In this document: piece after piece, positions 1-9,600 of the stretch
Numbering within the stretch: position 1 is the stretch's first letter
Layout of the letters: each line of letters starts with the position of its first letter
DNA from: a virus
Taxonomy: Duplodnaviria; Heunggongvirae; Uroviricota; Caudoviricetes
IMG/VR virus record: IMGVR_UViG_2609460125_000002
Span: 1-9,600 of that record
Reading direction: 5' to 3' (one strand)
DNA length: 9,600 bases
Position numbers and translations under genes: made by a program
The notes under the pieces: model-generated
Seen by the model: the letters and a program-made list of their open reading frames with translations, nothing else
The model's database searches: none
Told to the model about the DNA's origin: nothing

Positions 1-274
1 AACATCAATGTCGCGTAAAGGTAACTGTTACGACAACGCTCCGATGGAAAGCTTCTGGGGAACGCTGAAAAATGAGAGCCTGAGCCACTATCGTTTAATA
101 ACCGGGATGAAGCCATCTCAGTAATACGGGAATACATTGAGATTTTCTACAATCGTCAGCGTCGTCACTCTCGTCTGGGGAATATCTCCCCGGCAGCCTT
201 CAGGGAAAAATATCATCAGATGACTGCTTAAAAAAAGAACAAATGGTAGTGTCCGCTATTGCCAGTACACCTCA
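1..274 (+). mobile_element. 3' portion of an IS3-family insertion sequence (OrfB C-terminus plus right terminal region); exact IS not identified; right boundary approximate (269-274)
   Basis: Translation of 2..124 gives TSMSRKGNCYDNAPMESFWGTLKNESLSHYR, the conserved DDE-region signature of IS3-family OrfB. The adjacent integrase reading frame becomes non-integrase sequence at about 270-275. Terminal bases ...CAGTACA / ...CCTCA fit the TG...CA tips of IS3-family ends. Confidence 0.6.
2..231 (+). pseudogene. IS3-family transposase OrfB, C-terminal fragment with a frameshift
   Basis: Frame 2 reads ...GNCYDNAPMESFWGTLKNESLSHYRLITGMKPSQ* (stop 122-124). Frame 1 from 97 reads NNRDEAISVIREYIEIFYNRQRRHSRLGNISPAAFREKYHQMTA* (stop 229-231), the expected continuation of the same domain. 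A single missing base near 95-97 (cgttt-aataacc) joins the two. Confidence 0.6.
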
Positions 275-939
275 TCAAGGTCTGTAACGTTGGAACGGCG
301 AAGGCCTGTCGTGATTGCAAACATGACCACAGGGAAGAAATGAGGAGCAATTTCTGCAAACAGGCGCTTCGATTCCTCCTCTGTAAGCCATCTGATTCGT
401 CCATTCTTAACGCGTGGTGTTGATATTTTGGGCGCCCTGTCAAGCCATCCCCATTCAACAGCCATATTGAGAATAGCGCGAAGTATTGCCAGATGCCGCG
501 TCTTCGTTCCTTTGCTTGCCAGCTTTGGTTTATACTCCGGCACTGGCTTGCCAAGCCGCAAACACCTGTCCCGGCTCATTTCCCAGTTCAGGCGATGGCG
601 GCGGTTTTCCATCCCGTCTACCGCCTCCATTATTTTTTCTGTTGTTATGTCAGAGAGAATGGTTTCTCTGAAGTGCAACATCCAGAACGATATAATGCTC
701 TTGTCATCATCAATGGACTTCTTATCCGATTTCTCACGCAGCCACCGTATGCAGGCTTCCTTGAATAGCTTTTTCGGCGATTCCCCGAGATTTTTTACTC
801 TCCACGCTTCTGCTTTCAGACGATCGTGAAGTTCTTGCGCTTGCCTTTTGTCCGATGTTTCAAGAGAGCGTCTAACTCTTGATCCATCTGGCGCGACGAA
901 ATCGCAGTGCCACGTGCCACCGCGTAGTTTGATTGACAT
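256..939 (-). pseudogene. int: Phage tyrosine integrase, N-terminal fragment (227-aa ORF); catalytic C-terminal domain absent
   Basis: ATG at 939 preceded by AGGAGG (8 nt spacing). Protein has the N-terminal/core-binding region and ends just after a box-I-like motif AITTGLRRSNVTDL; no box II (HxxR...Y) follows. The last ~6 codons and the stop (256-258) appear to be supplied by the IS end. Confidence 0.7.
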
Positions 940-1235
940 GCTTTAACCTCCTGCACATCAACCGCATTCACCGCGCTATTGTGTCTCACAGACTTAAGCG
1001 CCGCAATGCAGTCTGACTTGCAAATGCGATATGGACTTTTAGGTTTATCTGGATTTATCTTTGCGGCCTGAAGTCGTCCACTTCGTATCCACTGTGTGAT
1101 AGTGCCTTTGTCTACCTTCAGATACGACGCAGCTTCTTCACGAGTGAAGATTTCTTCTTCCACCTGGAATCTCCATTTGTTGGATTGACATGATTGCGGT
1201 AGGTCTGGATATCTTGAGAAATGAACTGGCCTCAT
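816..1235 (-). CDS. xis: Excisionase-like helix-turn-helix protein (Xis/AlpA type); start uncertain (ATG 1235 with weak RBS, or GTG 1163 with GGAGA RBS)
   Basis: Motif FTREEAASYLKVDKGTITQWIRSGRLQAAKI resembles excisionase-family HTH domains; position immediately upstream of int. The 3' end overlaps int by 124 nt in another frame. Confidence 0.5.
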   Translation of the reverse strand: MRPVHFSRYPDLPQSCQSNKWRFQVEEEIFTREEAASYLKVDKGTITQWIRSGRLQAAKINPDKPKSPYRICKSDCIAALKSVRHNSAVNAVDVQEVKACQSNYAVARGTAISSRQMDQELDALLKHRTKGKRKNFTIV

Positions 1236-1262
1236 CGAGTGTGAGGCTGTGTGATTCCATAG

Positions 1263-1607
1263 TTAGTCCTTGCGTAGCTCGCTGATTCTTCTGTAAGTCT
1301 CTGGTGCTTTGTTTCCGTGTATCTTCATTTCAGACTTCAACAGAGCAACGAGGGAATCCCATTCGTTGAGGATGCCTTTGAATGCCGGAACGCGCTTTGC
1401 AACCTTGCCGAATGAATCTCTGATTTCTGGAATCTGCTCAACAAGTGCAACGCATCGTCTGAAATCGGCTGCGTCATGGGGAGCGCCGAAGTGATGACCA
1501 TAGATATTCTTTTTCAGGCCACATGCGATTGAGGCAAGAGTTGCGCTACTGATGCCAACATCGCCAGTCGATTGCCATTTCAAAACCTTCATAGCCAAAT
1601 CTGACAT
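1263..1607 (-). CDS. Hypothetical phage protein, 114 aa
   Basis: ATG at 1607 with GGAGA 6 nt upstream, directly downstream of a terminator hairpin. The ORF-track start at 1634 lies inside that hairpin and is probably an artefactual extension. Confidence 0.5.
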   Translation of the reverse strand: MSDLAMKVLKWQSTGDVGISSATLASIACGLKKNIYGHHFGAPHDAADFRRCVALVEQIPEIRDSFGKVAKRVPAFKGILNEWDSLVALLKSEMKIHGNKAPETYRRISELRKD

Positions 1608-1617
1608 TTCTTGTCTC

Positions 1618-1645
1618 CAATAAAAAACCGCCATCAGGCGGATTG
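1618..1645 (-). terminator. Intrinsic terminator (minus strand): stem CCGCC/GGCGG, loop UGAU, followed by U6
   Basis: Plus strand 1622-1641 aaaaaaCCGCCatcaGGCGG; on the minus strand the hairpin is followed by UUUUUU and then the RBS of the next gene. The loop contains the UGA stop (1634-1636) of the upstream 55-aa ORF. Confidence 0.5.
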
Positions 1646-1801
1646 GTGTTCTTTCAGTTCTTCAATTCGAATATTGGTTACTTCTGCATGTGCTATCTGC
1701 GCCCATATCATCCAGTGGTCATAGCAGTCGTTGATGTTCTCTGCTTCGATAACTCTGTTGAATGGCTCTCCATTCCATTCACCTGTGACTCGGAAGTGCA
1801 T
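1634..1801 (-). CDS. Small hypothetical protein, 55 aa (MHFRVTGEWNGEPFNRVIEAENINDCYDHWMIWAQIAHAEVTNIRIEELKEHQSA); not in ORF track
   Basis: ATG 1799-1801 preceded by GGAG (7 nt spacing), itself directly after a hairpin + U-rich terminator. The overlapping 61-aa track ORF (1708..1893) lacks such signals. Confidence 0.4.
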   Translation of the reverse strand: MHFRVTGEWNGEPFNRVIEAENINDCYDHWMIWAQIAHAEVTNIRIEELKEHQSA

Positions 1802-1810
1802 TTATCATCT

Positions 1811-1872
1811 CCATAAAACAAAACTCGCCGTAGCGAGTTCAGATAAAAGAAATCCCCGCGAGTGCGAGGATT
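1811..1872 (-). terminator. Tandem terminator-like hairpins (minus strand)
   Basis: Hairpin AACTCGC-cgta-GCGAGTT (1822-1839) followed on the minus strand by UUUGUUUUAU; second hairpin AATCC-N12-GGATT (1851-1872) followed by UCUUUUAU. Confidence 0.4.
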
Positions 1873-1901
1873 GTTATTCACCTTTGACGGCAAGTTGTAG
1901 G

Positions 1902-2435
1902 TTAGCCACGGTTAACCTCCTGAGGCGGTTCTGGTAGAGGCATCCAGTGGGTTACTCCATGCCATATACCAGTTAAGGTTTCAAACCTTGGCTCTCTGCC
2001 TTTCTGTGTCTTGGCATATTCATTCCTTGTATATACGCATTGTCTAACTGCATATCCATTCCATCCAATAACTGTTTGTCTAATTTCCGGCATCCGCTCA
2101 CTACAGCTTATCCAACCATCCGGAGTTACCGGCACTTGCTGGGCGGTATAAAGCGGTGTTATATCTGCCCGAAAATTACATGCTTTATGCAGCCGCACCC
2201 ACCGTTCGACTTCTGCTTTGTCAGAATACATACCAGTGAACGTGTTATATTCACGGTCAATTTGCGTGAATGTTACCTTCCACGCCACCGGCTCTGCTTC
2301 CAGCGATGCCAGTGCGATACGCAGGGCAGCCAGGATATTCCCCTGGTAATCATCAAGCCCGAAAGGAAGCTCATCACGAACGCTTTCATAATCGTTGATA
2401 GCCTGCTGCAGCCATTCTCTTGTGATAGTGCTCAT
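1902..2435 (-). CDS. DUF551-domain phage protein, 177 aa
   Basis: C-terminal region DGWISCSERMPE...GIWHGVTHWMPLPEPP matches the recalled DUF551 signature (W...THWMPLPEPP). ATG preceded by AGGAGAGG; start overlaps the upstream stop (ATGA). Confidence 0.65.
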   Translation of the reverse strand: MSTITREWLQQAINDYESVRDELPFGLDDYQGNILAALRIALASLEAEPVAWKVTFTQIDREYNTFTGMYSDKAEVERWVRLHKACNFRADITPLYTAQQVPVTPDGWISCSERMPEIRQTVIGWNGYAVRQCVYTRNEYAKTQKGREPRFETLTGIWHGVTHWMPLPEPPQEVNRG

Positions 2436-3166
2436 GATGCCTCTCCTTTACCTGCTTCGGTGACGTTTATTCCAGCGTTGTGCAGTGCCTCAAGAACCTG
2501 ATGCTGCCTGTAAACCATTTCAGTGTGGTAAGGCTTGTCAAAATCGACGCGATGCAACATGCTATAGCATTGCGGAAGCACAACCTCCCGCAACTCCAGC
2601 TCAGCAATGCGCTTCTCTGCGGCTTCCAGCTTCTCGCGCATATCGTCAACGTACTCGACCAGAGATCCGCCAGCAGGAATTTCGCATTCCTCGACCAGTT
2701 GGAAGTAGATATCAGCTGCGGCCCGTGTGTTGCTATGCCTAGCGTCGCCCATCTCACCTTCACGAAGAGCATCGCGTTCGGCGGTAAGATTGGCTATTTT
2801 GCTGTCTTTGCCTTCCAGCTCAACGCGCAGCCTCCCAACCGTAAGCGCAATATCCTCGTTCTCCTGGTCGCGTGATTTGATGTATTGCTGGTTTCTTTCC
2901 CGTTCATCCAGTAATGCCAGCACGGTAGCTGGACTGGCTGCTGCGATGAATTCAGCATTGGCCTGCTGTTCCATTTGGAAATCTTCATCGAAACCGCTTT
3001 CAGGATGCGCTCCTTCAATTCTGCAAATGGGAATATATCCAGCAACTTCTCGATGAATTAGCGCATCATCACCATCAAATTGGCCCTCTCCATATTCGAG
3101 CGACCACGCCCCACACGTTGCTTTCTCTGCCTTTTCACGCAGTGCCTGATAATCAATCTGGCTCAC
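2432..3166 (-). CDS. Ead/Ea22-like family phage protein, 244 aa, with central coiled-coil
   Basis: N-terminus [22 protein letters not shown]...ANAEFIAAASPATVLALLDERERNQQ resembles the Ead/Ea22-like N-terminal domain common in enterobacterial prophages. GTG start overlaps the upstream stop (GTGA). Confidence 0.6.
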   Translation of the reverse strand: MSQIDYQALREKAEKATCGAWSLEYGEGQFDGDDALIHREVAGYIPICRIEGAHPESGFDEDFQMEQQANAEFIAAASPATVLALLDERERNQQYIKSRDQENEDIALTVGRLRVELEGKDSKIANLTAERDALREGEMGDARHSNTRAAADIYFQLVEECEIPAGGSLVEYVDDMREKLEAAEKRIAELELREVVLPQCYSMLHRVDFDKPYHTEMVYRQHQVLEALHNAGINVTEAGKGEAS

Positions 3167-3408
3167 TGGTTGCCCCCCTGCTTTTCTGCCTTCAACACCA
3201 TGCGAGAACCATCATCCAACTCCCAAGCGATCTCACCACCTTCAGCCATGACCAGTCGCCACACCAATTGAGCAGCCTCATTGGTAACATCACGACCTGG
3301 ATCATTGCCAACGCGCATACGTCCACCTTCAACATCGCGCATTTTTGCCAGCATGATAGTTTTTGATAGCGGTGAAAAACCAAGCTGTAGTCGTGCTGAA
3401 TTACTCAC
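3163..3408 (-). CDS. Hypothetical phage protein, 81 aa
   Basis: GTG start at 3408 with AGGAGG 7 nt upstream; GTGA overlap with the upstream stop; ends ...QGGNQ. Confidence 0.5.
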
Positions 3409-3572
3409 TGGTTGCCTCCTTTGCGCAACATCGCATTCAGATATTTGTTTTGATTTACTGATGGAAAAGAATTTCTCTTAAGCAATTCCTCTCTCGATGG
3501 CATTGGCTTTACGCGTTGGCGAATAATCATTTTTGCCGGAAGAATGCCGGGATTGTATGCAAGTCCTCTCAT
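3405..3572 (-). CDS. Small hypothetical protein, 55 aa ([55 protein letters not shown])
   Basis: ATG at 3572 with GAGGAA 7 nt upstream, immediately after the stop of the 97-aa gene. The longer track ORF (to 3722) overlaps that gene by 140 nt and is probably an extension artefact. Confidence 0.4.
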
Positions 3573-3582
3573 GGTAAATTCC

Positions 3583-3876
3583 TCAGTCATTACTGATAGC
3601 GCCATAGCGTGAGCGGTAATTACGCAGGCGCGGGTCAATTTCAGGGAAGTGGGTGTATGTGGCTTTGCGGAATGGTCGGATTGATGTCTGGTAAATTCGC
3701 TCGCGTTCTTCTTTCTCTGCAAGCCATATACAGTGGCGAAATCCCTTTTCCTCTTTCGTTTCCTGCGGTAGCGACATTATCAGGTCGTAGTTTTTCCTGA
3801 ATTTATCCAGCACCTCCGATACGGAATTGCCGGAACAGCGGCGCGCGTCGTCCGCACCATATAGAGGCGCTGGCAT
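3583..3876 (-). CDS. Hypothetical phage protein, 97 aa
   Basis: ATG at 3876 with AGGAGAA 5 nt upstream; no recognisable motif. Confidence 0.5.
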
Positions 3877-3889
3877 GATTTTCTCCTGA

Positions 3890-4396
3890 TTAAATTGCGT
3901 GAATAGCGTGACGAGGGAAGGGGAGAGTTACTGGTGCAAAGGGTATATCGTCGTCAAAATCCATAGGAGGTTCGTTGTGTTGTGCTGGTGATGATTGCTG
4001 CTGTGGCTTCTGTGATTGCCTGCTGGCTGCTTGTTGTTTGCTGTCGCCAATGCCGCCAAGCATTTGCATCACGCCATTAATTCCGACATGAACCTCGGTT
4101 GTGTAACGGTCTTGCCCTGACTGGTCTTTCCACTTTCTGGTTCTCAGCATTCCCTCGAAATAAATCTGATCACCTTTTTTCACATACTGCCCCACGACCT
4201 CAGCCAGTTTCCCGGATACAGCAACACGATGCCATTCAGTCAATTCCTTTTGCTCGCCAGTATTTTTATCTCGCCATTGTTCTGATGTGGCTATTGTCAG
4301 GTTAGCGAACGCTGTTCCTGATGATGAGTATCGGACTTCCGGGTCTTGTCCTACCCGACCAAGGATAATCACCTTATTTACGCCTCTGCTTGCCAT
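3890..4396 (-). CDS. ssb: Single-stranded DNA-binding protein (SSB), 168 aa, with a 15-residue extension after the DDDIPF tail
   Basis: N-terminal OB-fold sequence [23 protein letters not shown]...TEWHRV...[12 protein letters not shown] and the acidic tail ...[13 protein letters not shown] are textbook SSB. The ORF then continues [15 protein letters not shown] before TAA at 3890-3892. Confidence 0.9.
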
Positions 4397-5104
4397 TTAT
4401 GCCACCTGTTTTAGTTCGTTAACTCTGATGTTCATTACCTGAACGCATTTAGCCTGCGCCTCCTCGTTGCCAGCCATTAATTGCCAGTCACGCTGATAAC
4501 GCTCGATGAGTTTTTTCTTGTCAGTTTCTGTTGACGCATAATCGCTGAAGTCTTTCAGGATTTGCTCGCAGTCAACCGATGGAGATTTCTGGTTGGTATT
4601 TTCTGGTGATGGTTTGTTATCTGATGCTGGGATTGCCCATCCCGGCAGCGATGGAGGGAGCCAGTAAAATCCTGTTCCATCCTTGAGTTTTGCCCTGTGC
4701 CATCCCTGCTTTTTATCGAGAGATGTTTGTGCGAAACCTTCCTCAAGGTTATACAGATACCGACCGATTCCCCACTGAACGGCAGCGCGCTTCATTGCAC
4801 CGGAACGACCACCTTTGACGGCTTCTACCTGCGTGTTTTCAGCAGCATCCCATTTGGTTACCCATTCGGAATCAATCTTGATTGATATGCCGCATTCAAC
4901 GCCGCCGTTGTTGGGAATATCGCGGTATTCATTGCGCCATCCTGCTTTGCCGCAAACATCGTCCAGGCGTTTCATGATTGCCCTGTTCGTGACATAAGCC
5001 AGCACCATAGCCCACACTTTTCCATCGCGTGTTTTACCGCTTTGCTGTATTCGCCATTCGATATCTTCAGGGCTGAATGGCTCATCGAATTTATTCAAAT
5101 CCAT
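4397..5104 (-). CDS. Rad52/Sak-type single-strand annealing protein (recombinase), 235 aa
   Basis: Motifs GAMKRAAVQWGIGRYLY and GKAGWRNEY resemble the Rad52 annealing-domain signature; sits immediately upstream of ssb (TAAATG junction), a typical phage recombination module. RBS GAGGTG. Confidence 0.65.
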   Translation of the reverse strand: MDLNKFDEPFSPEDIEWRIQQSGKTRDGKVWAMVLAYVTNRAIMKRLDDVCGKAGWRNEYRDIPNNGGVECGISIKIDSEWVTKWDAAENTQVEAVKGGRSGAMKRAAVQWGIGRYLYNLEEGFAQTSLDKKQGWHRAKLKDGTGFYWLPPSLPGWAIPASDNKPSPENTNQKSPSVDCEQILKDFSDYASTETDKKKLIERYQRDWQLMAGNEEAQAKCVQVMNIRVNELKQVA

Positions 5105-5203
5105 AATTCACCTCAGAATGGACATGGCCCAAGGAAATAACGCTGGTTTAATACTTCGACTCTGGACAAATTAAGGCATACCCGCATTCCTTCGCGGTCG
5201 CCA

Positions 5204-5362
5204 TTATGGCGATACCAGAGAGCTTTCTGCGTGTACATGCGTCTCTGTAACTTGCTCTCCTTCACTGTGGTTGCAAGTGACATGCATATCTCCTTCGTTA
5301 CCGATTAATTCTTTCATCTGACGAATGAATTCTTCGTCTGACCAGTTATCTGTAAAACTCAT
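5204..5362 (-). CDS. Small hypothetical protein, 52 aa (MSFTDNWSDEEFIRQMKELIGNEGDMHVTCNHSEGEQVTETHVHAESSLVSP); not in ORF track
   Basis: ATG overlaps the stop of the kil-like gene (ATGA) with AGGAA upstream. Lies between kil and the annealase, where P22 carries arf; no sequence evidence for that identity. Confidence 0.35.
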   Translation of the reverse strand: MSFTDNWSDEEFIRQMKELIGNEGDMHVTCNHSEGEQVTETHVHAESSLVSP

Positions 5363-5511
5363 TTCCTGCGATACCACGGAAGGTTGATAGCTGATTTCAT
5401 CGCTTTATTTGCTTCAAGCCACATTTTTGAATCACCAATAAATCTGGCTATTACTGCTTTGTTCTGTGCAGCACGAAGCATCTGGTGATTGATGGCTATT
5501 TCATTGCGCAT
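5359..5511 (-). CDS. kil: Kil-like host cell-division inhibitor, 50 aa (MRNEIAINHQMLRAAQNKAVIARFIGDSKMWLEANKAMKSAINLPWYRRK); not in ORF track
   Basis: Core VIARFIGDSKMW closely resembles lambda Kil (IATFIGDEKMF, as recalled); position directly downstream of the cIII-like gene as in lambda; GAGG 8 nt upstream of ATG. Confidence 0.5.
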   Translation of the reverse strand: MRNEIAINHQMLRAAQNKAVIARFIGDSKMWLEANKAMKSAINLPWYRRK

Positions 5512-5627
5512 AATAAGACCTCAACTCTTTTCCATCCGTCACGTAATTTACGGGTGATTCGCTCAAGTAAAGATTCATTTAGTTGGAAGGCACCCATGCG
5601 AGCGCCTCCCGCGATTGCGTAAATCAT
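5496..5627 (-). CDS. cIII: CIII-like FtsH protease inhibitor, 43 aa (MIYAIAGGARMGAFQLNESLLERITRKLRDGWKRVEVLLCAMK); not in ORF track
   Basis: Contains ESLLERITRKLRDGWKR, matching the essential central helix of lambda CIII as recalled, and an MxYAIAG N-terminus; AAGGAA RBS 7 nt upstream. Confidence 0.6.
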   Translation of the reverse strand: MIYAIAGGARMGAFQLNESLLERITRKLRDGWKRVEVLLCAMK

Positions 5628-5651
5628 GGGTGGTTCCTTATATTGGTTTTA

Positions 5652-6620
5652 TTAGTAGGTTATTTTTGTTGCGAATACTTCGCCTTTTACGATGGCTGTT
5701 ATGATATTTTTAGCAACATCTTCTGATGCACCAACCTTGATAAGGTCAACAAGTATTTTGTTATTTACTTCTTTCCGGTGAGCTTTATCTTTTGCTCTAC
5801 GCTCTTCTTCGTCCTTGATTCTTTTTTCTTCTGCTATTCTGGCTTGCTCTTTTGCTTCAGCCTCGCGACGGATTCGTTCAGCCTCCTCCTGTGCTTTTCT
5901 GCGTTCTGCTTCAATTGCCGCATGCTTTTCTCTTTCAGCTCGTTCCGCCGCCTCTTTTGCTTCGCGCTGTGCTCGTTGCTCGGCTTCAATGCGTTCACGC
6001 TCTGCTCGTTCCGCAGCGGCCTTAGCTTCTGCTTCTCGCCTTGCTGCTGCTTCAATTTCGGCTTTTGCCTTTGCTTCGGCTTCTGCTCTGACTTTCTCTT
6101 CAGCTTCTCTTTTTAAGCGTTCTTCATGCTCTCGCTTTTCCTGCTCCGCTTTGAGTCTTGCCTCTTCTCTTTGGCGGTCAAATTCGCGATCCATCAAAAT
6201 CGCTATTTCATGGTCAGACTCAATTTGCTTTGCGAGAGCTTCAGCTGCTGCCTTAGCTTCTTCTTCGGCTTTAATCCGCGCCTGCTCCTCCTCATAATCA
6301 GTAAGAGGCTGGCGCGCCTTGGCTTTCAGTTCATCAAGGCGATCACGCACTGTCTTGCGGTTGGCATCAATTAGCTTTGGAATTTCCTTCAGTTCAGCAA
6401 CAAGGTCTTTGCCAAGACCATCGAGATATGTTTTCGTCTGCGCAACTTTATACGCCAGAGAAGCGATCTCCTTTCTGCCCTTTGCCGTTGTGATATCAGG
6501 CACAAAGGACATAACTTCACGTTCAACCTTTTGGAGAATTTCTTCAATCTGGTCGGCAGACTTAAATACAGTCATTGCATTTGCTTTTTCAATAACAACT
6601 AAATCTGTTACTTCACTCAT
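5652..6620 (-). CDS. Hypothetical phage protein, 322 aa: N-terminal domain, ~150-residue E/A/K/R-rich coiled-coil (TolA-like low complexity), short C-terminal domain
   Basis: ATG at 6620 with GGAGG 5 nt upstream, directly after a terminator hairpin; the track start at 6674 reads through that terminator. The underlying DNA is repetitive and produces spurious plus-strand ORFs. Confidence 0.6.
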   Translation of the reverse strand: MSEVTDLVVIEKANAMTVFKSADQIEEILQKVEREVMSFVPDITTAKGRKEIASLAYKVAQTKTYLDGLGKDLVAELKEIPKLIDANRKTVRDRLDELKAKARQPLTDYEEEQARIKAEEEAKAAAEALAKQIESDHEIAILMDREFDRQREEARLKAEQEKREHEERLKREAEEKVRAEAEAKAKAEIEAAARREAEAKAAAERAERERIEAEQRAQREAKEAAERAEREKHAAIEAERRKAQEEAERIRREAEAKEQARIAEEKRIKDEEERRAKDKAHRKEVNNKILVDLIKVGASEDVAKNIITAIVKGEVFATKITY

Positions 6621-6630
6621 ATATCCTCCA

Positions 6631-6662
6631 TCAAAAAAATTGCCCTCACACTGGAGGGCAAA
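6631..6662 (-). terminator. Intrinsic terminator (minus strand): stem TGCCCTC/GAGGGCA, 6-nt loop, followed by U7
   Basis: Plus strand 6633-6660 aaaaaaaTTGCCCTCacactgGAGGGCA; on the minus strand the hairpin precedes UUUUUUU and then the GGAGG RBS of the 322-aa gene. Confidence 0.5.
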
Positions 6663-6721
6663 GAAGATTTCCAATAATCAGAACAAGTCGGCTCCTGTTT
6701 AGTTACGAGCGACATTGCTCC

Positions 6722-6749
6722 GTGTATTCACTCGTTGGAATGAATACAC
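6722..6749. repeat. Inverted repeat GTGTATTCA-N10-TGAATACAC
   Basis: Perfect 9-bp arms at 6722-6730 and 6741-6749 in the 134-bp intergenic gap between the 67-aa and 322-aa genes; not followed by a U-run. Confidence 0.4.
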
Positions 6750-6754
6750 AGTGC

Positions 6755-6958
6755 TTATTCGCGAGCTTTGAGCATTGCGTCTGCAAACTTATATGCAGCG
6801 CTTGCTGCATAATTAACAGCTCCATCAGAATCATTATCGATAATCGATGGATTGCTAATCATTGCTTGCATAGCCTTTGCCGCGAAGTAATCACGTAATG
6901 TCGCATCACTTGCCATTTCTGGGCGTTTGATATCTGCTTCATAAAACTCGCACATCAT
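6755..6958 (-). CDS. Hypothetical phage protein, 67 aa
   Basis: ATG overlaps the stop of the upstream 98-aa gene (ATGA) with GGGAGA upstream; no recognisable motif. Confidence 0.5.
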   Translation of the reverse strand: MMCEFYEADIKRPEMASDATLRDYFAAKAMQAMISNPSIIDNDSDGAVNYAASAAYKFADAMLKARE

Positions 6959-7251
6959 TCATCTCCCAGAGCCTTGCTGATTGCTGCAAGACCTTTATTA
7001 ACAGCTCCATACCATTCTGGATATGTTGTCGTTGTTCTATTTTTGGATTGCTTAAGTAATAACTGAAGTGCTTCGAGAAGGTCAGGTGCTGCCGCTATTA
7101 GATTGGCATCTTCAATACATTGAACTTCCTCACAGATTGCAATATACGAACGCCAGCCTGCGCCATTTTCAAGTGAGTCTGCCTGGATGATTTTAATCTC
7201 ATCGCCATCCATCATTATTTCCCACTTACCTTCAGTACCTTTAAATTCCAT
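6955..7251 (-). CDS. Hypothetical phage protein, 98 aa, sharing a short motif with the Ead/Ea22-like N-terminal domain
   Basis: ATG with AGAGG 6 nt upstream after a terminator; motif EDANLIAAAPDLLEALQ parallels ANAEFIAAASPATVLALL in the 244-aa protein. Confidence 0.55.
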   Translation of the reverse strand: MEFKGTEGKWEIMMDGDEIKIIQADSLENGAGWRSYIAICEEVQCIEDANLIAAAPDLLEALQLLLKQSKNRTTTTYPEWYGAVNKGLAAISKALGDE

Positions 7252-7271
7252 GTTAGCCTCTGTTGTTTATG

Positions 7272-7298
7272 CCAAAAATAAAGGCCGACTATGCGACC
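7272..7298 (-). terminator. Intrinsic terminator (minus strand): 5-bp stem with one G-U pair, loop CAUAGU, followed by UUUAUUUUU
   Basis: Plus strand 7274-7298 aaaaataaaGGCCGactatgCGACC; the loop contains the UAG stop (7289-7291) of the 207-aa gene. Confidence 0.4.
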
Positions 7299-7912
7299 TC
7301 GGAAGGAAGTCCAATCATCTTATTCAAATCTTCTACCCGTAAAGCAGGAAGTGCTGTACTTGCTTTATCTGCTTCTTTTGGTAGCAATTCTTTGCTTTCA
7401 GGCCAAACTTCAATAAGTCGCTTAACTGTTGTGACTGAGTTCAAAGCAGCCCATACATTTGATTCGATATCCTTTTTCTTGGCTTCAAGTTTTTGTTGCA
7501 ATGCGCAGATTTCATCAAACCTTTTTGTTATTTTGTGTTCTGCATCAAACATGCATTTATCTTTGGTTGGAGTAGGGAGAAATATATCTTCGCCATTGCC
7601 GTCTTTCCCATATGAATGCCATCCAACCCTTCTGCCAGATACAGTCAGATAAATTGAAGTAGAACGAAATTCGTATGAGTAAAATGAACATCCCATCTTT
7701 TCAAGTTCTTCACTTATAGCTACCAACTTGGATGATAACTGATCCACTTCCTCAGTTTTCTTTTTACCGCCAAACGCAATAACTCTGGCGTCAAGTGCAA
7801 GCTGGTTCTTTAACTTTGTTACTTCTTCAAGTTCAGTGAAAACCCCAGACTTAATTAAAGCGTTACGAGCGATTTCCTCTTTCATTCTCGTAGTTAAGCG
7901 GATTGATGACAT
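7289..7912 (-). CDS. Hypothetical phage protein, 207 aa, unknown function
   Basis: ATG at 7912 with GAGG 8 nt upstream, after a terminator hairpin; the track start (7927) is a TTG extension. No catalytic motif or strongly hydrophobic segment recognised. Confidence 0.55.
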   Translation of the reverse strand: MSSIRLTTRMKEEIARNALIKSGVFTELEEVTKLKNQLALDARVIAFGGKKKTEEVDQLSSKLVAISEELEKMGCSFYSYEFRSTSIYLTVSGRRVGWHSYGKDGNGEDIFLPTPTKDKCMFDAEHKITKRFDEICALQQKLEAKKKDIESNVWAALNSVTTVKRLIEVWPESKELLPKEADKASTALPALRVEDLNKMIGLPSEVA

Positions 7913-7936
7913 ATTAATTCCTCTCAAATAAGAAAA

Positions 7937-7962
7937 TAAAGGCCACCATCAGGCAGCCTTGT
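7937..7962 (-). terminator. Intrinsic terminator (minus strand): hairpin with UGAU loop followed by a U-rich tract
   Basis: Plus strand 7939-7960 AAGGCcaCCatcaGGcaGCCTT preceded by aaaataaa; the loop contains the UGA stop (7949-7951) of the ral-like gene; same loop sequence as the terminator at 1628-1641. Confidence 0.4.
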
Positions 7963-8143
7963 TGTTCTGTTTACCAAGTTCTCTGGCAATCATTGCCGTA
8001 GTTTGTATTGCCCATTTATCGACATATTTCCCATCTTCCATTACAGGAAACATTTCTTCAGGCTTAACCATGCATTCCGATTGCAGTTTGCATCCATTGC
8101 ATCGCTTGAATTGTCCACACCATTGATTTGTATCAATAGTCAT
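7949..8143 (-). CDS. ral: Ral-like restriction-alleviation protein, 64 aa, Cys-rich
   Basis: Four cysteines at residues 9, 15, 18 and 24; strongly resembles lambda Ral as recalled; located in the leftward operon downstream of the N-like gene, as ral is in lambda. Confidence 0.5.
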   Translation of the reverse strand: MTIDTNQWCGQFKRCNGCKLQSECMVKPEEMFPVMEDGKYVDKWAIQTTAMIARELGKQNNKAA

Positions 8144-8275
8144 ACGGATAGTCCTGGTATTGTTCCATCACATCCTGAGGATGCTCTTCGAACTCTTCAA
8201 ATTCTTCTTCCATATCTCACCTCAAATAAGTGGTTTGCTGCCAAAACAATGAACCATCCGGAAATTCCAGATAGT

Positions 8276-8503
8276 TCATAATTCACTCTTCAATACTTCC
8301 AACTTACTAATCGCCGATAGATATCCGCGCTGATAGGGCATCATCATTCCTTCGAGCTTGCCACTTCTTAACTCCTCCCTGAGCAATTGTATTGCTTGAT
8401 CAATAACCTCTGCCTTAGCGTCCTTTATGGCTTGCTTGCGGGGCTTTGCTTTCTGCTTTGGCAGATTTCTCAAGCATGATGGAATGTATGTCTGATTCAC
8501 CAC
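8276..8503 (-). CDS. Hypothetical phage protein, 75 aa (GTG start immediately after the N-like stop)
   Basis: ORF begins at a GTG directly abutting the TAA of the upstream gene (TAAGTG), with GAGG just upstream; lysine-rich, no recognised motif. Confidence 0.4.
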   Translation of the reverse strand: MVNQTYIPSCLRNLPKQKAKPRKQAIKDAKAEVIDQAIQLLREELRSGKLEGMMMPYQRGYLSAISKLEVLKSEL

Positions 8504-8776
8504 TTACCTCGCTGTCAGTTGTTTTGATTTCCGGTAGCCTGCCGCGTAAATGGCTACGTTTGGCAGGCAAATACTTCCACTGCATTCATCTGCCTTCTTG
8601 CAGCGAAGGCTTCCGAGTGATGCTGCTTTATCTGCTCTGACGCAACCAGAGAGCTTTAGCGCAATTTTTCGTGCCAGTCGCTGCTCTTGCATTGCCTGTT
8701 CACGTTGAGCCTGTCTGCGTGCTCTGCGGCGATTTCTGGCGTTATCGTCAGCCAGATATGTAATGACTACTGCCAT
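8504..8776 (-). CDS. N-like transcription antitermination protein, 90 aa, with an arginine-rich motif
   Basis: ATG at 8776 with GGAGGT 4 nt upstream; N-terminal DDNARNRRRARRQAQREQ resembles the arginine-rich boxB-binding motif of lambdoid N proteins; first gene of a terminator-punctuated leftward operon. Confidence 0.45.
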   Translation of the reverse strand: MAVVITYLADDNARNRRRARRQAQREQAMQEQRLARKIALKLSGCVRADKAASLGSLRCKKADECSGSICLPNVAIYAAGYRKSKQLTAR

Positions 8777-8934
8777 GTTGACCTCCGATGATTGACTTTG
8801 GCGGTGACGCGACGGGTGCTTATCTTCCGGTTGCTGTCGTGCAGCTGCACTTCACGTCACCCTGAAGTGGCACACTGAATTTGGCCACCTGAACAGAGGT
8901 GATATGCTCACCTCAGAACAACACAGGTGCTCCA

Positions 8935-9600
<666 letters not shown>

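Follow-up and report, generated by a model that had tools for sequence, protein, structure and literature searches.

What do three small genes between ral and a coiled-coil gene do in a lambdoid prophage? The window, i.e. the whole stretch of 9,600 nucleotides (nt) analyzed here (positions 1 to 9,600 of IMG/VR record IMGVR_UViG_2609460125_000002), is the early-left (pL) operon of such a prophage, read on the minus strand. The three genes, which encode proteins of 207, 98 and 67 amino acids (aa), occupy the variable interval, hereafter called the slot, which separates N/ral from cIII in lambdoid early-left operons of the P22/HK97 type. The original prediction had pointed, from position, to this block as the most plausible place in the window for an anti-defence or exclusion function. 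Comparison of related loci showed that the three genes assort independently. Our preferred reading, tentative and placed a little under an even chance, is that all three encode non-enzymatic early proteins which act by binding other molecules, with a role in host takeover or counter-defence.

Gene models and protein families

The three genes are the following.

7289..7912, minus strand: 207-aa Nmad5-family gene (PF18757, phrog_1965; from Pfam, PHROG and the RefSeq product)
6955..7251, minus strand: 98-aa gene, very likely of the Phage_P22_Y8K6 / XkdD-Y8K6 family (PF27050, phrog_1273; from PHROG and precomputed Pfam)
6755..6958, minus strand: 67-aa gene, small acidic two-helix domain (from the C-terminal part of phrog_2201 / phrog_37111)

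They were described as lying directly downstream of a Ral-like gene at these coordinates; this is correct, and the Ral assignment is genuine (PF11058, E=2.9e-45). The 207-aa gene starts with the ATG at 7912, with GAGAGG 7 nt upstream; the list of open reading frames (ORFs), made mechanically, stretches it to a TTG at 7927. A Shine-Dalgarno sequence was found for each of the three genes (AGAGG, 5 nt upstream, for the 98-aa gene). The translational coupling announced for two of them concerns the 98/67 pair, in which stop and start share ATGA (gaATGAtg); because a second ATG follows at once, the coupling stands for either start of the 67-aa gene. The same three coding sequences, with the same 4-nt overlap, are annotated by RefSeq in E. 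coli PD7. Each of the three proteins has full-length homologues at 30-70% identity in other genera, so these ORFs are real genes and not chance.

None of the three proteins was thought to have an assignable motif. This does not hold for the first two, and the third has PHROG families only. The 207-aa protein is a full-length member of PF18757 (E=7.9e-72, 242 bits for a cut-off of 27, profile positions 1-206 of 206), matches phrog_1965 (E=4e-83) and is named "Nmad5 family putative nucleotide modification protein" in RefSeq; it is called Nmad5 below. The 98-aa protein matches phrog_1273 (E=7e-32) and is named "XkdD/Y8K6 family phage-associated protein" in RefSeq. Its membership in PF27050 is very likely, on the basis of this PHROG and of matches precomputed on cluster representatives 91-98% identical to it; contig look-ups name the family Phage_P22_Y8K6. 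The 67-aa protein is without Pfam family and was aligned by PHROG to the C-terminal part of phrog_2201 and phrog_37111. Remote homology and structure searches, which had been proposed as a check, thus gave families for the 207- and 98-aa proteins and no solved relative for Nmad5; a PDB sequence search returned nothing meaningful for any of the three. As sequences the genes are nothing new: all are already in RefSeq, Pfam or PHROG, and they are common lambdoid accessory genes. In complete E. coli genomes, 2247 out of 5426 match at least part of a 1.55-kb query (6650-8200), which includes ral.

Assortment of the three genes

Co-occurrence was counted in 82 loci, namely 80 viral contigs with a 93-98% identical Nmad5 and two annotated records. 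In a tblastn search, 13 of these loci had the coiled-coil gene, 11 had Ral, 10 had Y8K6 and 2 had the 67-aa gene. A recount with hidden Markov models agrees: 58 of the 80 Nmad5 contigs carry none of the other families. Most Nmad5 loci have cIII and/or kil directly after Nmad5. Y8K6 and the coiled-coil gene were observed together once in the 80 Nmad5 loci, for 1.6 expected by chance, and the 67-aa domain lies nearby in only 8 of 80 Y8K6 loci. In one locus (L013) the partner coupled to this 98-aa gene is an unrelated gene of 62 aa. According to DNA comparison, two recombination joints coincide with gene borders (6953 and 6761), and two more fall within genes at conserved motifs, one at 7101 (region of AAAPDLLEAL) and one at 6910 (region of RDYFAAKAM). 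Reshuffling therefore proceeds by whole-gene swaps and by recombination within genes, and the "block" of the original prediction does not travel together. Since their presence is patchy among near-identical phages, the genes are dispensable.

These counts bear on the idea that the Nmad5, Y8K6, 67-aa and coiled-coil proteins make up one co-functioning multi-gene module. The four families are indeed neighbours in the window and also in two divergent prophage-like contigs (L143 and L160), Nmad5 has remained next to Y8K6 in Pantoea and Cronobacter prophages, translational coupling links the 98- and 67-aa genes, and L091-L094 contain a homologous pair of Y8K6 and small gene. Against this stand the free assortment in E. 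coli-type loci, where co-occurrence is not above chance, the many Nmad5 loci devoid of the other families and the rarity of the 67-aa domain near Y8K6. Because of these counts a single three- or four-gene system was rejected. We attribute the recurrence of the families together to a shared insertion slot with a limited repertoire, which accounts for the co-occurrence, and a common module appears very improbable.

In L143 (1454-4284) and L160 (2059-4216) the row consists of Nmad5, a 67-aa-domain gene, Y8K6 and a coiled-coil homologue, the two small genes being in reversed order relative to the window. The L143 Nmad5 is 57% identical (measured on P0018, an identical protein).

Nmad5, structure model and genomic context

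The AlphaFold (AF2) model of Nmad5, obtained from a 51-sequence alignment, has a predicted local distance difference test score (pLDDT) of 86.4 and a predicted template modelling score (pTM) of 0.72. Three long helices (residues 8-72) come first, followed by a beta-hairpin (86-100), a further long helix (127-158) and, towards the C-terminus, short helices. The final ~20 residues are of low model confidence and almost invariant in sequence. The nearly invariant tail reads K/R-L-I-x-x-W-P-E ... L-N-x-x-I-G-L-P, and the window protein and distant members have in common the C-terminal motif T-x-K/R-x-L-I-x-x-W-P-E ... L-N-x-x-I/L-G-L/I-P. In an alignment with Dhillonvirus, Yuavirus, Providencia and Serratia members the invariant residues are T162, L166, W170, P171, E172, L196, N197, G201 and P203. 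Conservation across distant members concerns mainly hydrophobic or structural positions; R5, T162, E172 and N197 are the only polar residues among them. A fold search with the model found neither an enzyme-like fold nor a solved structural relative. We infer that Nmad5 is a helical protein and not an enzyme, because the predicted structure and the few conserved polar residues show nothing suggestive of catalysis.

The family is large: a profile search gave 2277 clusters at 50% identity, and a homologue is encoded in 379 phage records. Among the best 150 profile matches in the 50%-identity representative library, nearly all are stand-alone proteins of ~200 aa. A profile search of genome contigs gave 4 loci, too few for statistics. 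Genomic settings differ widely: the temperate enterobacterial early region, a hypermodification cluster in Yuavirus SN1, and head genes in Dhillonvirus. In several types of phage the gene is an early one: in many E. coli and Cronobacter prophages Nmad5 comes directly after N, and in both the Providencia and the Serratia prophage loci examined it is the first gene called past a CI-like repressor.

According to its name, Nmad5 would be a component or DNA-targeting adaptor of a nucleotide- or base-modification pathway, with the small neighbours as helpers. The family was named after its association with modification genes and RefSeq propagates the name; in Yuavirus SN1 the gene lies between aGPT-Pplase1 and a pyrimidine hydroxymethylase (PMC9476957). 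Nmad5 proteins of the M6/Yuavirus type (e.g. SN1_019) belong to the same family as that of the window, with ~31% identity over the C-terminal 100 residues, but they sit amid aGPT-Pplase, kinase, radical S-adenosylmethionine (radical-SAM) and pyridoxal phosphate (PLP) enzymes and a hydroxymethylase, none of which is present in the window or in other lambdoid loci. No nucleotide- or DNA-modification enzyme was met in association with Nmad5 in the window or in the Klebsiella, Pantoea, Cronobacter, Providencia and Serratia loci; the Pfam families detected in the window are N, Ral, cIII, Kil, Rad52, Abc2, Ea22 and DUF551. The modification-enzyme neighbourhood was seen only in the Yuavirus locus, and such a contextual feature does not decide homology. 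Since contexts differ between phage groups, the name rests on guilt by association in one of them. It implies an enzymatic role which neither the structure model nor the lambdoid gene context backs. The confident model devoid of enzyme-like fold, the scarcity of conserved polar residues and the stand-alone nature of the best matches also speak against a modification pathway, which we hold to be improbable for this locus.

Nmad5 and escape from Tmn

A published result links the most conserved motif of Nmad5 to the defence Tmn, and it is the single such link. In the Dhillonvirus phages SM_A8 and SM_S22, escape from Tmn maps to the Nmad5 substitutions K216E and K296E, and putting the wild-type residue back restores Tmn sensitivity; the nmad5 gene can be deleted from the phage, and the deletion gives no Tmn escape; cloning of the gene failed, with apparent toxicity (PMC11846954).

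The escape lysine encoded by both Dhillonvirus genes lies in DKK|LIKAWPE, as the second K, and the residue aligned with it in the window protein is R165 (VKR|LIEVWPE), which directly precedes the invariant L166 and W170-P171-E172. As judged from this alignment, the lambdoid protein would carry the same conserved surface as the Dhillonvirus escape site. The SM_S22/SM_A8 proteins and that of the window belong to the same Pfam family (32% identity in the C-terminal half, E=2e-13), share the invariant T...L...WPE...LN..G.P motif and are both products of dispensable accessory genes. Unlike the window protein, the Dhillonvirus one has 254 aa, with an extra insert in mid-protein and an N-terminal half which can barely be aligned, and its gene stands on the opposite strand among the head genes of a lytic siphovirus.

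In Dhillonvirus KS_S9 (L087, 4030-4794) nmad5 resembles an inserted accessory gene, flanked by head-morphogenesis and scaffold genes and placed on the opposite strand. What is annotated as 334 aa in SM_S22 is this 254-aa gene lengthened upstream by 80 codons.

The two small acidic proteins

Both small proteins are acidic, with isoelectric points of 4.4 (98 aa) and 4.6 (67 aa). In the AF2 model of the 98-aa protein (pLDDT 72) an N-terminal beta region is of low confidence and a helical hairpin (45-95) is confident. The family alignment has a conserved N-terminal part, up to about residue 63, and conserved last ~15 residues; residues ~64-85, round the predicted tip of the hairpin, are swapped for unrelated cassettes of differing length. 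The family of P22 Y8K6 and B. subtilis PBSX XkdD consists, like the 98-aa protein, of small early-region proteins of temperate phages; its centre is hypervariable in a cassette-like manner, and the window copy holds one particular cassette. The N-terminal half of Y8K6 is also found in ~145-kb Klebsiella, Salmonella and Cronobacter phages. A literature search on Y8K6, XkdD and the PHROG identifiers gave nothing relevant.

The 67-aa protein is built the other way round. Among its 1400 homologues the N-terminus is freely exchanged and the core that follows it, TLRDYFAAKAM ... AY.ADAMLKARE, is constant: the C-terminal ~48 aa are up to 100% identical between genera and the N-terminus varies.

A role as housekeeping-type early factors outside immunity, which might for example modulate replication, recombination or the choice between lysis and lysogeny, has to be weighed for all three genes. 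They share an operon with cIII, kil, a Rad52-like recombinase, an ORF reading as single-stranded DNA-binding protein (SSB) and Abc2; Nmad5 often adjoins replication and recombination genes; lysis-lysogeny modulation has been reported for Ea22 and for genes of the exo-xis region, and the motif pattern of the 98-aa protein resembles the N-terminus of the Ead/Ea22-like protein of the window. This resemblance is without statistical support: hhalign gave a probability of 0.6%, hmmsearch 1.8 bits against the window's Ea22-like ORF, and the Ead_Ea22 domain has no Pfam match in 40 Y8K6 family members even at E<=10. In addition, patchy presence makes the genes dispensable, which fits niche-specific cargo better than core regulation. 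We regard a housekeeping role as rather unlikely, and as one to keep in mind.

By eye the likeness is striking. The 98-aa protein (6955-7251) and the Ead/Ea22-like protein (2432-3166) contain, in the same order, K-x-T-x-G-x-W, YI-x-IC and AN-x-x-IAAA-(S)P-x-x-L; Ead/Ea22-like proteins (PF13935) in general share with the 98-aa protein G-x-W, YI-x-IC and AN-x-x-IAAA-(S)P-x-x-(L/V)L-x-(A/L)L, and differ from it by greater length and a coiled-coil C-terminal part. As the profile tests failed, homology of the 98-aa protein with the Ead/Ea22 N-terminal domain was rejected.

Expression of the three genes

Signals around the genes were searched by consensus scan and folding, and the ends of the window were compared with insertion sequences (IS). 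The elements considered are as follows.

7939..7960, minus strand: terminator-like hairpin and U-run at the end of ral, just upstream of Nmad5 (consensus scan; -13.9 kcal/mol, z=-3.2)
7281..7300, minus strand: weak hairpin and T-run over the Nmad5 stop codon (consensus scan; -8.3 kcal/mol, z=-0.8)
6720..6751, minus strand: perfect 14-bp stem-loop just after the 67-aa stop (-21.7 kcal/mol, z=-7.0, without U-run)
8863..9600, plus strand: IS911 (IS3 family), 98% identical to annotated IS911, 86 nt upstream of the N start codon
1-274: IS600, truncating the integrase ORF (256-939) to 227 aa

No sigma-70-like promoter was found by consensus scan, a weak kind of evidence, on the minus (coding) strand between 5500 and 8900. 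Terminator-like hairpins precede the genes: in addition to the one at the end of ral, a hairpin with U-run lies past the 75-aa gene (-20.3 kcal/mol). Given the lack of an own promoter and these upstream hairpins, expression would depend on N-antiterminated pL transcription. Such expression is off in the lysogen, which argues against superinfection exclusion.

The exclusion part of the original prediction, in which the genes would be expressed by the prophage as superinfection-exclusion or defence cargo shielding the lysogen, is thus difficult to maintain. Defence genes are frequent in prophage accessory slots, and sieB of lambda and P22 lies in roughly this interval. Yet the membrane association of exclusion proteins of the SieA, SieB, Imm or Cor type is not seen here, as none of the three proteins contains a transmembrane segment (top 19-residue Kyte-Doolittle means of 0.61, 1.11 and 0.47 for the 207-, 98- and 67-aa proteins), PADLOC gives no match, and the coding strand offers no promoter-like site, with terminator-like hairpins upstream. 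Strictly lytic phages, such as those of Dhillonvirus and Yuavirus and Vibrio phages, also have Nmad5, and the ~145-kb phages mentioned above have the N-terminal half of Y8K6. With neither a membrane segment nor an own promoter in any of the three genes, we give exclusion almost no weight.

In the source genome the operon is cut off from pL/nutL, at least by IS911: homology to intact relatives ends exactly at 8862, and the boxA/boxB-like nutL of these relatives lies just past that point. Together, IS600 and IS911 suggest a defective prophage remnant in an IS-rich host; the exact mosaic of the window was not found in any complete E. coli genome searched. With the operon detached from pL/nutL by IS911 and the integrase cut short by IS600, this prophage is probably defective, and its three genes are probably silent passengers in the source genome.

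As to the other hairpins, the one at 7281..7300 is doubtful as a terminator. The sequences flanking Nmad5 (7939-7960 and 7281-7300) both end in GGCCTTTATTTT, within a hairpin which includes the last codons of the preceding gene, and these flanks may be module-boundary linkers. The stem-loop at 6720-6751 is kept in 82 of 191 fetched loci, usually ~48 nt past the Nmad5 stop where the Y8K6 and 67-aa genes are absent; it always marks the distal edge of the variable slot, whichever gene precedes. Candidate roles for it are those of RNA processing site, pause site and recombination linker. An Rfam search over 5400-9000, stem-loop included, gave no match.

A counter-defence slot?

The anti-defence idea, which was derived from position, finds some backing in the content of the slot. 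In a related E. coli prophage (L092, CP146665.1) the gene at 5633-6607 encodes Gad1 (Gabija anti-defence 1; PF25705, E=6.5e-68). It directly follows a Y8K6/70-aa pair and the conserved hairpin, at the position held in the window by the unrelated coiled-coil gene; in the window, Ral lies upstream of the three genes and Abc2 (anti-RecBCD) downstream. Gad1 raises the prior for counter-defence in this slot and is not evidence on the three proteins themselves. Like them, Ral, Gad1, Abc2 and Gam are small or medium non-essential early proteins of the same operon (for Gad1, of the same slot), but they are similar to the three neither in sequence nor in fold. None of the known anti-restriction and anti-defence Pfam families (Ral, ArdA, Ocr, Gad1, Abc2 and others) matches the three proteins; the Gad1 profile detects the L092 protein and none of the three; and the supplementary tables of a counter-defence screen of accessory genes (PMC12373910) contain no match to them. 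The idea therefore stands as far as the position goes, and membership in a known anti-defence family does not.

The scenario we favour is as follows. The three are separate accessory genes, devoid of promoters of their own, in the variable slot between N/ral and cIII. In an intact phage their products would be delayed-early lytic proteins, made only once N carries pL transcription through the hairpins after the 75-aa gene and ral. Nmad5 would most likely bind a host or phage macromolecule; stoichiometric binding or inhibition is also what would be expected of the two small acidic proteins. For all three, the likeliest role would be in early host takeover or in counter-defence, nucleotide modification and superinfection exclusion being less likely.

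Several observations weigh against this scenario. The counter-defence reading is tentative, resting on position, small size, acidity and one indirect result from an unrelated phage genus. No PADLOC (E<=0.1), NCBIfam or anti-defence Pfam match was obtained for the 207-, 98- or 67-aa protein. Deletion of nmad5 left Tmn sensitivity unchanged (PMC11846954), so that neither plain triggering nor plain inhibition of Tmn describes Nmad5. Its presence within a thymidine hypermodification cluster in M6/Yuavirus-type phages leaves a DNA-related role open. Concerning expression, the promoter scan considered the sigma-70 consensus only, which a weak or non-canonical promoter could escape, and the window stops within IS911, so that pL/nutL may persist just beyond and might read through.

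A more specific proposal, speculative and in our view unlikely, would make Nmad5 a widespread non-enzymatic early effector whose invariant K/R-LIxxWPE surface makes direct contact with a host immune or DNA-handling component, through the same interface that the KAP-NTPase defence Tmn reads. Y8K6, with its conserved hairpin and cassette-like hypervariable tip, and the 67-aa protein, with its constant C-terminal and variable N-terminal module, would be specificity-diversified inhibitors shaped by an arms race. If the Nmad5 surface is indeed read by Tmn, lambdoid prophages bearing Nmad5, which are found in many E. coli genomes, would be Tmn-sensitive and switchable at R165. This R165/Tmn hypothesis is the most useful lead of the analysis, whose value is that of a pointer for experiments and not of a discovery. 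Lambdoid Nmad5 is an easy genetic system in which to study the role of the protein; natural phages with and without the gene exist (mEp235, HK542, Stx1 phages). More generally a slot with Ral, and with Gad1 in relatives, is a sensible place to screen for counter-defence genes.

Neighbouring genes

The genes around the slot to which the text refers are located as follows.

8776-8504, minus strand: N gene (PF25694)
7949..8143, minus strand: Ral, restriction alleviation, context only (PF11058, phrog_1055)
5652-6674 as listed, minus strand: coiled-coil ORF, without Pfam family
3166-2432, minus strand: Ead/Ea22-like ORF (PF13935)

The order of the operon is N, the 75-aa gene, Ral, the 207-, 98- and 67-aa genes, the coiled-coil gene, cIII and Kil, followed by the Rad52-like recombinase, the SSB-reading ORF, Abc2, DUF7446, the Ead/Ea22-like gene and DUF551. 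The SSB call in the window comes from sequence inspection only; ssb is annotated by RefSeq in related loci. Past DUF551 are an apparent excisionase and the truncated integrase, judged by position and sequence.

The coiled-coil gene, considered as an analogue of Gad1, was rejected since the two have no similarity. Its start is probably the ATG at 6620 (MSEVTDL...) rather than the listed TTG at 6674; a terminator-like hairpin (6661-6640) falls within the TTG-extended part. Its homologues are named "cell envelope biogenesis protein TolA" or "coiled-coil domain-containing protein" in RefSeq, and "Smchd1" in one phage record.

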